A stretch of 64,000 nucleotides of DNA from Pseudomonadota bacterium (GTDB lineage: Bacteria > Campylobacterota > Campylobacteria > Campylobacterales > Sulfurimonadaceae). The notes under the pieces were generated by a model that saw only the letters and a program-made list of their open reading frames with translations, was not told the DNA's origin and searched no databases. Where the stretch lies: contig JAZDQA010000008.1 of the NCBI GenBank assembly GCA_043797085.1, positions 96,001-160,000 on the forward strand, given 5' to 3'. The translations under genes and the position numbers were made by a program. Shown here in pieces: positions 8,763 to 58,115 of the stretch; positions within the stretch are counted from its first letter, which is position 1; each line of letters begins with the position of its first letter.

Positions 8763-8777
8763 TGCATATTTTGTTCT
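8763..8777 (-). promoter_or_regulatory. Non-canonical sigma54-like -24/-12 motif for the P-II gene
   Basis: AG-AACAAAATAT-GC-A, 36 nt before the ATG. Confidence 0.6.
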
Positions 8778-8838
8778 CAATGTTTTGTACGACAAAAATG
8801 TCGTTATATTACGCATTATTAAATAATCACACCGTTTT

Positions 8839-8912
8839 CGTCATTCCCGCGAAGGCGGGAATCCAGCTTTGCTTAGAGGAGATGGATCCCCGTGTCAAGC
8901 ACGAGGATGACG
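8839..8912 (+). repeat. CGTC-tagged composite palindromic (REP/dRS3-like) element
   Basis: CGTCATTCCCGCGAAGGCGGGAATCC...TGGATCCCCGTGTCAAGCACGAGGATGACG; inverted copy at 12765-12853. Confidence 0.85.
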
Positions 8913-8949
8913 AGCGATCAAGGTTGATGACGCTTGGTATTATTAGTCA

Positions 8950-8964
8950 AGAACACCATTTGCA
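8950..8964 (+). promoter_or_regulatory. Non-canonical sigma54-like motif for the nifU operon
   Basis: AG-AACACCATTT-GC-A, 36 nt before the ATG. Confidence 0.65.
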
Positions 8965-9000
8965 ATATGTCGGATAATATCATCCATCAAGGAGCAATCA

Positions 9001-56400: not shown

Positions 56401-56860
56401 ACGTCACCAGAATATTCCGGCAATGGTTGAATCAGCTCTTAAAAAGTCAGGATATCCGGCAGATAAGCTCGAGCTCGAACTCACAGAAAGCGCTCTTATG
56501 CAAAGGGAAGAGGAGACGGTGGCAATGCTTCATATGCTTCGTGCACAGGGGATACGACTTGCCATTGATGACTTCGGTACTGGATATTCGTCACTCTCCT
56601 ATCTGAAACGGTTTCCGATTGATGTATTAAAAATTGATAAAAGTTTTGTGGATGATCTTCCGTTTGATGCAGATGATATGGCGATTGTTACGGCCATTAT
56701 CGCTATGGGGACAGCACTTGGTTTTCAGATTTTAGCGGAGGGAACAGAGCGTATCGAGCAGATTGAATTCTTAAAAGAGCGTGGATGTACAATGTATCAA
56801 GGGTATTATAAAAGTCCGCCACTACCTGCAAAAGAGTTTTTTGAACTGTTATGCAAATAG
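53453..56860 (+). CDS. 4xCBS-PAS-GAF-PAS-GGDEF-EAL protein
   Basis: GIFTERD/GLITERD CBS motifs; GSCGTA GAF; RLGGDEF; AEALVRW; IDDFGTGYSSL. Confidence 0.92.
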   Translation: MKRTTLASILTKNVTTLSIDVTVSYAMEVMTLGNLSSLIIVDADNRPIGIFTERDSLKVISGKIALDSHLGDAMSQGVYTVHRDDEIHDTYAIMSDKGFRHLVIVDDEGRLEGVATQGDFLRHIGFDNMTYSKNITTVMTKSVVMLNRDSTITYAASLMAEHHSDYAVITEGTIPVGLITERDILQYASAKNEFGDDPIWSVYQSDFPVCTEETSLSEAASLMEHHGVHQLIIADDDGNLVGLLTRYDLLQALHGSYFEFLIRQVDSKSTALTELKDVYAKLVQDQDDLSKSEEKFRTLFDMLPDGVVLVDPITHQTVDFNSVAAQQLGYTADEFLEINISDYETIETKEETNAHVQAILHDGQHEFDTVHRRKNGSLMDVRVTVSGVTIRENPYLLAYYRDITDKKRQAIRLQAQLDLLGIIATNIPMQELLETISLFVEKQCNGIKCSILLADDKTQTLQNGAAPSIPLSYTNSIIGVPIAQGNGSCGTACATRLPVVVSDVLTDPLWHQYLSLIKPYSWLRACWSTPFFDQDKNLLGTFALYADTQRNPDANEQELMTYSASLAGMVVERFSRQEAYAQQAVFLHTLINTIPDLVWVKDMAGVYLACNEMFERLYNAKELEIIGKTDFDFVDSELAQFFQDHDRAAIAAGGSKTNEEFLKFADGSYEGLFDTIKTPMKDAEGTIIGVLGIARDITDRKRYEERLETLANYDTLTGLANRALFSSHLQSSIEKAKRHKTQIAVLMFDLDRFKDVNDSFGHAAGDELLQQVAQRFDVRLRDGDIISRLGGDEFAIVLEHLNRPEDAGRIAKEMIDAQNAPYKLIGGALVHIGMSAGIVLFPDHGESASELLQHADAALYKAKGEGRGIYRYYTDELTDSARQRIEYETCLRRAVTNNEFEVYYQPQVHIATGKIVGAEALVRWNDPEKGIIYPSLFIPIAEDTGLIGAIGEWVLNETCRQGKIWLDGGHRLTLAVNLSAHQVRHQNIPAMVESALKKSGYPADKLELELTESALMQREEETVAMLHMLRAQGIRLAIDDFGTGYSSLSYLKRFPIDVLKIDKSFVDDLPFDADDMAIVTAIIAMGTALGFQILAEGTERIEQIEFLKERGCTMYQGYYKSPPLPAKEFFELLCK

Positions 56861-56880
56861 GAAGCTCTTCTTTGTATGAA

Positions 56881-58065
56881 TCAGCCTACTTCGTTTGTGT
56901 AGGCATACGTCGAGGAGATAGAGCGTAAGCGCTCTGCTGCTTTGATAAAGATATCGATGACATAATCAATCTCATCCGCTGTCGTAAATCTGCTGAGACT
57001 TAGACGGATTGCCGTGTGGGCGAGCTCAGGGTCTTCACCGATGGCATTCATAACGGGATTGGCTTGGAGTGATTCCGAGGCGCATGCGCTTCCGGTGGAG
57101 GCGGCGATACCGGCACGATTTAGATCCCACAGCATCGATTCACCCTCAATACCGCGTAAAGAAATGAGAATCGTATTGGGAGTTTTACGTGCGCGGTCAC
57201 CTACGACGATGGTATCGGGAAGTTGTGAAATCGCATCTTCGAGACGGTCACGAAGGGCGCGAACATCACTGTTCATCTTGTCCAAGTGACCGACTGATTG
57301 CTTCATCGCCAATCCCATTCCGATCATATAAGCGACATTGAGTGTTCCGGCGCGATAGCCACCCATTTGTTCCCCACCGTGAAGGAGATTCGGAAGCTCT
57401 TTCCCTTTTTTTACATAGAGTCCGCCGATCCCTTTTGGACCGTGGAATTTGTGTGCGGAAAAGGTGAGATAATCGATCGGTGTTTTGGTGAGATCGACCG
57501 AAACTTTTCCGATTGCCTGCACTGCATCCGTATGAAATAAAATCCCTTTTTCTTTTGCAATAGCAGCTACTTCATCGACGGGGAAGATCATCCCTGTTTC
57601 ATTGTTCGCCCACATCATAGAAATGAGGATCGTTTTGTCCGTAATAGCTGCTGCGATACGTTCGGCACTCACATAACCGTATTGGTCAACATCGACAAAA
57701 GTGACTTCCGCCCCATGCTCTTGTAGAAAATGAAGCGTTTCCAGAACAGAAGGGTGCTCAACAGCGGATGCAATAATGTGATTTTTACTCGGATCAGGGA
57801 GGATATGTTTGAAAAAGATCCCCTTTAGAACCGTATTGTTGCTCTCGGTTGCACAGGAAGTGATGAGAATATCATCCGCATCGGGAGCGTTAAGCGCATC
57901 GTACATGTATCCCATTGCCTCATTCAAATAGGGGCGTACTTCGATACCGTATTGGTGAAGCGAGTTGGGATTGCCATAAAACTCTTCAAAAAACGGCTGC
58001 ATTTTTACTTTTACGATAGGGTCTAGTTTGGTGGTTGCATTGTTGTCGAGATAGACGCGTTTCAT
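56881..58065 (-). CDS. nifS: Cysteine desulfurase NifS
   Basis: [45 protein letters not shown]. Confidence 0.93.
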
Positions 58066-58100
58066 GTTTTGTCCTCATGTGTCGTTATTATAAGGACTAA

Positions 58101-58115
58101 TGCAAGATTTGTTCG
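58101..58115 (-). promoter_or_regulatory. Non-canonical sigma54-like motif for nifS
   Basis: CG-AACAAATCTT-GC-A, 35 nt before the ATG. Confidence 0.65.

Follow-up and report, generated by a model that had tools for sequence, protein, structure and literature searches.

Can a sigma54 regulon do without the GG of its -24 element? The question is raised by a nitrogen fixation (nif) cluster in the 64 000 nt stretch of DNA analysed here, termed the window (contig C8, positions 96001–160000, of a 2.40-Mb genome), in which eleven 15 nt sites with the layout of sigma54 promoters, but with a base other than G at the first position, stand before nif and associated genes. The GG of sigma54 promoters has been treated as nearly fixed, and a whole nif regulon lacking it would escape standard searches in widespread sulfur-oxidizing diazotrophs; matrix-based surveys admit missing deviant sigma54 promoters (PMC12316311). 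The genome was found to carry two rpoN genes, rpoN1 and rpoN2, the second in the nif cluster, and across relatives the first base of the sites changed with the type of nif-linked RpoN. The sites are quite probably -24/-12 promoters read by RpoN2, as judged from sequence comparison.

Sites without GG in the window and across the genome

An original prediction, made from the letters of the window, had listed eleven sites and attributed them to a nif-dedicated RpoN. All 11 were present at the coordinates and on the strands listed, and the accompanying gene labels (P-II, nifU, tpx, fprA, nifQ, AAA, fdx/nifX and nifS) agree with profile-based annotation. Nine sites lie 25–37 nt from the start codon. 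The two outliers, at 32083 (111 nt) and 36546 (137 nt), each have in the leader, as had been noticed, a repeat resembling a repetitive extragenic palindrome (REP); the same 34 nt repeat is shared by both in opposite orientation, and the genome holds three copies (32112–32145, 36637–36670 and C10:96653–96683). The features of the window are as follows.

8763..8777, minus strand: non-G sigma54-type site, 36 nt before a P-II-like gene (8331–8726, minus strand); first base of orthologous sites A in 15 and G in 8 of 23
8792..8801, no strand: ACA-W4-TGT palindrome, 24 nt upstream of the P-II site, a second cis element
8950..8964, plus strand: non-G site, 36 nt before nifU (9001–9978); first base of orthologous sites A in 35 and G in 1 of 36
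16075..17703, minus strand: nifA, encoding GAF, AAA+ (GAFTDA loop) and HTH_8 domains; the likely activator
17795..17809, plus strand: non-G site, 33 nt before the thiol peroxidase operon, divergent from nifA
21439..21453, plus strand: non-G site, 25 or 31 nt before a flavodiiron protein gene (fprA)
24747..24761, plus strand: non-G site, 30 nt before nifQ (24792–25121)
32061..32075, minus strand: non-G site with a GTA ending, 32 nt before a 186-aa gene; back to back with the 32083 site, 7 nt away
32083..32097, plus strand: non-G site, 111 nt before an AAA and DUF2201 gene pair
32112..32145, no strand: REP-like 34 nt repeat in the leader
35325..35339, minus strand: non-G site, 35 nt before a 73-aa gene; back to back with the 35347 site, 7 nt away
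35347..35361, plus strand: non-G site, 31 or 37 nt before a Sel1/NifU-domain gene
36546..36560, plus strand: non-G site in the 3' end of an ORF with a TOBE domain (36140–36592), 137 nt before ferredoxin-nifX
36637..36670, no strand: second copy of the REP-like repeat, inverted relative to the copy at 32112..32145
58101..58115, minus strand: non-G site, 35 nt before the nifS of the nif cluster; the other nifS of the genome has no site

The consensus of the original prediction gave 13 matches in the window against a mean of 3.65 (maximum 10) in 40 third-order Markov shuffles, a comparison that is partly circular because the consensus was derived from the same sites. The two matches beyond the eleven are probably due to chance; one (27807–27821, plus strand) lies within an ORF (27223–27945) and 116 nt before an 80-aa ORF, and the other (24758–24772, minus strand) overlaps the nifQ site on the opposite strand, 151 nt before a 631-aa gene. 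The motif proved rarer in shuffled DNA at genome scale too, with 16 of 2410 ORFs from a simple ORF caller carrying it 22–45 nt ahead of the start codon, compared with a mean of 2.78 (maximum 7) in 100 shuffles. Only the 4-base spacer was enriched, spacers of 2, 3, 4, 5 and 6 giving counts of 4, 1, 18, 1 and 1. These counts rest on fixed degenerate patterns from that consensus, with no position weight matrix, so weak sites are missed. The sites have the two elements of sigma54 promoters at fixed spacing (xG-N10-GC) while the GG at -24 is present in 0 of 11 sites in the window (and in 7 of 108 sites of the variant clade described below), and they appear to be a functional-type variant of -24/-12 promoters, not canonical members. 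The earlier statement that the first base is never G held within the window; it failed beyond it, since the same genome has one G-first site ending in GCA (C8:168899–168913, on the minus strand and 124 nt away from its gene) and relatives also have sites that begin with G.

Genome-wide, sites with a 4-base spacer located 20–60 nt before genes fell into 18 non-G..GCA, 0 G..GCA, 3 non-G..GCT and 9 G..GCT sites. The nine genes with GG..GCT comprised three with flagellar Pfam matches (flgB, fliW and flgF/G-like), one LPP20 lipoprotein, three with unrelated matches and two with none. The nif and flagellar promoters thus differ at -11, with GCA in the former and GCT in the latter, as is expected of paralog-specific sigma54 pairs. 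Flagellar promoters were found to keep GG, flgB being preceded by GG..GCT in 23 of 28 genomes; the exceptions were four genomes of family f10, in which the sole RpoN is nif-linked and no GG..GCT was present at flgB, and one unclear case (G208). In line with the proposed link to nif, the motif precedes nifH (35 nt) and nifB (74 nt), both outside the window, but nifE, also named as a place to look, has only a close variant with C at the third position, as has nifN. Further genes with the motif outside the window are rpoN2, amtB, a SIR2-like-clpP operon and a ferredoxin gene. A site is present at the nifS of the nif cluster and at none of five housekeeping-type nifS genes (the other copy of this genome and those of four relatives without nifH). 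None of 16 che, kinase, regulator or GGDEF/EAL genes has a site within 170 nt upstream, which agrees with the reported absence of the motif from che and GGDEF genes, and within the same distance none was found upstream of nifA, nifT or araC in the window. A site 52 nt before lysS and the non-G..GCT sites are probable chance matches. Of 21 RNA data sets, all consisting of contigs (best share 0.22), the four aligned to the nifH region showed no transcript starts or ends. Predicted members of the regulon include amtB, the thiol peroxidase and flavodiiron operons and a SIR2-clpP-clpX operon.

It was also considered whether the 15-mers are operators of another regulator, NifA or a repressor, lying beside sigma70 promoters. 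Sigma70-like matches do occur in the P-II/nifU spacer (3, against 1.4 ± 1.4 in shuffles), and the back-to-back pairs would be crowded for two holoenzymes. Such a role is very improbable, however, because the motif is directional and mostly lies 25–45 nt before starts, because GG..GCA fills the same register, spacer and distance at the orthologous genes of sister families, and because the motif differs from the sigma54 motif of Campylobacter jejuni mainly at the first and last base (PMC3847290).

Three of the genes with a nif-type site or a variant of it upstream lie on other contigs, namely nifE (C3:19660–21018), amtB (C7:17070–18248) and a 4Fe-4S ferredoxin gene (C11:156385–156774). Within the window, the divergent sites at 32061–32097 and 35325–35361 are paired back to back with 7 nt between them, so their occupancy may be mutually exclusive. 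Two AAA and DUF2201 (VWA/metallopeptidase-like) gene pairs, at 25085–27263 and 32209–34352, are located downstream of nif-type sites.

Two rpoN genes and the first base of the -24 element

The second rpoN that had been postulated was found in the nif cluster, at C8:87625–88890, after nifW, nifZ and a 2Fe-2S ferredoxin gene. The genome therefore has two intact rpoN genes, each encoding all three sigma54 Pfam domains, and resembles known paralog-specific sigma54 pairs in having at least two such genes with one tied to nif. RpoN2 matched PF00309, PF04963 and PF04552 above cut-off and TIGR02395 with 317.9 bits, contains no stops, and is encoded 38 nt downstream of a nif-type site of its own. The rpoN1 gene follows that of an ATP-binding cassette (ABC) ATPase, which we take to be lptB. 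Two enhancer proteins were identified, NifA, with GAF, AAA and helix-turn-helix (HTH) domains, and a 384-aa receiver-AAA protein for which the domain profile search gave no HTH match. The latter is probably FlgR-like; FlgR of Helicobacter pylori acts without an enhancer.

To relate the sites to the sigma factors, genomes were divided by the residue at the position of Ser470 (numbering from alignment to a 477-aa solved chain), and the intergenic sites ending in GCA or GTA in the fetched nif loci were scored. In the 22 genomes with Tyr or Phe, six of which (G015, G020, G033, G034, G035 and G208) were typed by kinship or N-terminal identity with the tail unread, the first base was A in 82, C in 12, T in 7 and G in 7. 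In the 22 other (Ser-type) genomes, one of which (G050) yielded no nif-linked rpoN, it was G in 52 and A, C and T in one each. The G-first share was therefore 7 of 108 in the Tyr/Phe subclade and 52 of 55 with a Ser-type nif RpoN. By gene, A came first in the variant clade at rpoN2 (59/62), nifU (35/36), nifH (18/21) and nifB (12/14), and C at nifE (22/37) and nifN (29/34). G is disfavoured, but not excluded, as the first base in this clade. G208 was considered as a counter-example and rejected, its rpoN2 being cut by a contig end. The GCA ending, put forward as a mark of nif promoters, does set them apart from flagellar GCT, but it is not tied to the loss of G because it also occurs in the GG-keeping nif promoters of other families. 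This indicates that the GCA ending is an older, order-wide and separate layer.

These comparisons also bear on whether the flagellar RpoN1, or both sigmas interchangeably, could read the sites, with specificity coming from NifA alone. Both sigmas retain the two RpoN-box arginines and a similar -12 HTH, and redundant RpoN paralogs are known from rhizobia. Two single-contig genomes, G242 and G521, nevertheless have the variant as their only rpoN and show non-G sites in the nif region (10 of 13 and 5 of 10, respectively), and these sites cannot be read by an RpoN1 that is absent. In G242, NifA was the only enhancer protein and flgB had no match. Moreover, Thr457 and Ser470 are retained in 29 of 29 RpoN1 sequences, whereas the nif promoters vary with the type of RpoN2. 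Reading by RpoN1 is thus highly unlikely, and reading by RpoN2 is retained.

Which residues of RpoN2 might be responsible was examined in 66 variant sequences. The altered RpoN box foreseen in the original prediction was found in so far as the Thr457 position holds Val in 33, Ser in 20, Leu in 11, Ala in one and Thr in one; Thr is thus replaced in 65 of 66 and both arginines of the box are kept. The altered box is insufficient alone, however, and the best covarying residue, Ser470, lies after it, with Tyr in 47 and Phe in 19 sequences. A change of Thr457 to Leu as the sole explanation was rejected, since the RpoNs of G043, G065 and G161 have Ser at 457 and go with GG promoters, which shows that loss of Thr457 is not sufficient. 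Thr457 is kept together with Tyr at the Ser470 position in G163, whose sites are mixed (two A and two G). The simplest order would be gain of the aromatic residue, then loss of Thr, then near-complete loss of G. Residues D439, T457 and N471 are reported to be capable of hydrogen bonding with the -24 element (PMC2715252). Other clade-specific columns include Phe414 and Asp330 (RpoN2 numbering) and several outside the DNA-binding region.

Several observations weigh against this account of the residues and of the regulon. The variant RpoNs are one clade, so the covariation represents a single evolutionary event among kin that are not independent; the variant class was itself defined by the Ser470 column, and other clade-specific columns appear to fit the covariation equally well. 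Sites with G first are still found in the clade, at P-II (8/23) and, in G242 and G521, before nifH and nifB. An aromatic residue at the Ser470 position was also found in 6 of 145 distant representatives (145 read of 150), five of which keep Thr457. In Klebsiella, the 457/458 mutant scored 0 and the 469/470 double mutant 99 in the first activity column, and this value of 99 % in that column implies that the latter position is not critical there (PMC2715252). Lastly, the canonical NifA site, TGT-N10-ACA, was not enriched, being found within 300 nt of 3 of 18 promoters, two of which share one site (shuffle mean 1.6, maximum 6). Whether the named residues cause the changed first base is close to an even question, with the balance slightly towards their not doing so. 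Five distant sigma54 representatives (P0041, P0073, P0075, P0128 and P0144) combine an aromatic residue at the Ser470 position with Thr457, and may be independent cases by which the role of these residues can be judged.

A further explanation, compatible with the core of the reading preferred here, is that RpoN2 reads the sites but has simply lost discrimination at the first base, with A arising through mutation bias and no selected insulation. Such a loss would account for the G still found first at P-II sites and, in G242 and G521, at nifH and nifB, and GCA versus GCT already separates nif from flagellar promoters in families that keep GG. However, T is found at only 7 of 108 sites against 82 with A, which is unpredicted by AT bias alone, and nifE and nifN keep C (22/37 and 29/34). 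G is also commoner in the absence of RpoN1: G242 and G521 have it first at 8 of 23 sites, whereas in G197 and G140, where RpoN1 is present, it is first at 1 of 26. This difference comes from one genus and one event but would be expected if G were selected against in the presence of a flagellar sigma. Loss of discrimination without selection is rather unlikely, and there is perhaps an even chance that the benefit of the changed base is insulation from RpoN1 and FlgR.

Lineage of the nif-linked sigma factor and a palindrome upstream of nif-type sites

A survey of the genus gave an rpoN match in 33 of 36 genomes and a nifH match in 26 of 36. Other genes of the nitrogenase family are present in six members that have a second rpoN without a nifH match, whereas no such genes were found in three members with one rpoN and no nifH or in one without rpoN. 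Further divergent rpoN copies were seen in G057 (L012, L013), G053 (L017) and G037 (L015), which have no nifH match; G057 has three rpoN genes and two NifA-like proteins. In a selection of 46 genomes of the order, a single rpoN was present in the diazotrophs of families f6 and f10, where it lay among nif genes in the loci read, while those of families f8 and f23 had two.

In a 47-row tree with 12 outgroups, the RpoNs of Campylobacterota formed their own group. The nif-linked RpoNs were one group (98 in the Shimodaira–Hasegawa-like approximate likelihood ratio test, SH-aLRT) beside the flagellar group (87), and the variant RpoN clade was nested in the nif-linked group (SH-aLRT 98); this tree and a further one were both quick trees, and the present one contained no Cereibacter (Rhodobacter) sphaeroides sequence. 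This suggests an old duplication of RpoN within the phylum. The variant clade consists of Sulfuricurvum, Sulfurimonas-like genomes and single genomes of three other families. A DNA pattern search for the variant RpoN tail was positive in 13 of 401 genomes, all of family f1, with a strict pattern that would miss variants of other families (G163, G198 and G200). One genome of family f1, G186 (L140, L141), has a Ser-type nif RpoN that groups with those of f6 and f10, suggesting a transferred nif cluster. The C-terminal region of RpoN is matched by 7 and 9 stretches in P0028 and P0057, respectively, and these proteins seem to contain tandem RpoN-domain repeats.

The canonical NifA site is also rare at orthologous promoters, so in this respect the regulon is not a canonical NifA regulon. 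In the variant group, 45 of 101 sites have a different palindrome, ACA-W4-TGT, in the 120 nt preceding them, compared with 0 of 54 in the other group. The palindrome was found at P-II (23/23), nifH (21/21), nifU (35/36) and nifB (9/14), nearly absent at rpoN2 (2/62) and absent at nifE (0/37) and nifN (0/34); in this genome, 6 of 18 promoters have it. Distances from palindrome to site clustered around 22, 33, 43, 53, 62 and 72 nt (Rayleigh P of about 1e-4 at a period of 9.5–10, the best of seven periods tried and overstated by kinship), and the palindrome is thus roughly helically phased to the promoter. The recognition helix of NifA is alike in genomes with and without the palindrome, and the element may be a changed NifA site or the site of a separate regulator. 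An araC gene was present in four loci only. A GC-rich hairpin-like insert at about 8820–8915, in the P-II/nifU spacer, separates the palindrome from the nifU site by 158 nt, whereas in most relatives this distance is about 22 nt. In two genomes of family f10, G205 and G247 (L117, L118), the recognition helix of NifA is strongly altered relative to all others compared.

Proposed mechanism and comparison with known systems

Under nitrogen limitation, RpoN2 holoenzyme would read the nif sites and be activated by NifA, while the flagellar RpoN1 with its FlgR-like activator would use the GG..GCT promoters. The nif-type site before rpoN2 would allow RpoN2 to raise its own expression by positive feedback. 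A nif sigma with promoters ending in GCA, not GCT, would have arisen from an old duplication in Campylobacterota. The C-terminal domain that binds the -24 element would subsequently have changed in a single subclade (Tyr or Phe at Ser470, usually with loss of Thr457, and Phe at 414), and A or C would then mostly have replaced the first G of GG. Expression of nif and flagellar genes would be kept separate by the -11 base together with the first -24 base. Since an activator that lacks a DNA-binding domain could act on any closed complex of sigma54, separation at the step of sigma and promoter would be useful. Taken together, RpoN2 might be a naturally evolved orthogonal sigma54 in which one or two substitutions (the aromatic residue at Ser470 and loss of Thr457) switch GG to AG or CG, so that the host sigma54 cannot fire nif, and in which NifA uses ACA-W4-TGT as a new site; this combined proposal is tentative and somewhat more doubtful than not.

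In canonical NifA–RpoN regulons, such as those of Klebsiella and rhizobia, a NifA with GAF, AAA and HTH domains acts on sigma54-type promoters before nifH, nifB, nifE, nifU and nifS. The same architecture of NifA and sigma54-type sites before nif genes are found here. Unlike in those regulons, TGT-N10-ACA is not enriched and ACA-W4-TGT is found at some promoters. The NifA of this genome has the GAFTDA loop seen in epsilonproteobacterial FlgR (PMC3162934). Compared with the flagellar sigma54 motif of C. jejuni, GGaa-N6-tTGCTt (PMC3847290), the nif sites share core letters, spacer and register, and promoters of the C. jejuni class are also present in the genome; the nif class differs in having mostly A or C for the first G and A for the T after GC.

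A literature search, covering few subscription journals and no supplements or regulon databases, found no description of nif sigma54 promoters or of a second rpoN in Campylobacterota, and look-ups of such terms in PMC12316311 and in PMC12029903, which describes N2-fixing isolates, gave none. The closest natural system is that of C. sphaeroides, in which RpoN1 and RpoN2 are separate nif and flagellar sigma54 paralogs with their own activators and promoters distinguished at -11 (PMC11999139, PMC3162934). The GCA/GCT split described here is the same kind of -11 rule. However, promoters of C. sphaeroides are reported to vary only at -11 and to keep GG (PMC11999139), whereas here the first G of the -24 element has also changed, following the altered C-terminal domain. 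Paralogs for nif and flagella that differ at -11 are therefore known, and loss of the first G at -24 in nif promoters probably served by a paralogous RpoN appears to be new, a case that is strong on sequence comparison. The order presents a graded series, from GG..GCT flagellar through GG..GCA nif to A/C-first..GCA nif promoters, which makes the residues that read the first G testable.

The laboratory counterpart is an engineered sigma54 with R456H, R456Y or R456L and a changed -24 element, which together with NifA runs nif genes apart from the host sigma54; evolution is stated to have settled on R456 and TGGCA (PMC12096077). In RpoN2, unlike in these mutants, both arginines are conserved and the differences are at Thr457 and Ser470; its orthogonality is a prediction. 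If RpoN2 is orthogonal, it would be a natural counterpart of the engineered pairs intended for nif transfer (PMC12096077), and RpoN2, NifA and these promoters would constitute a portable, insulated expression module.

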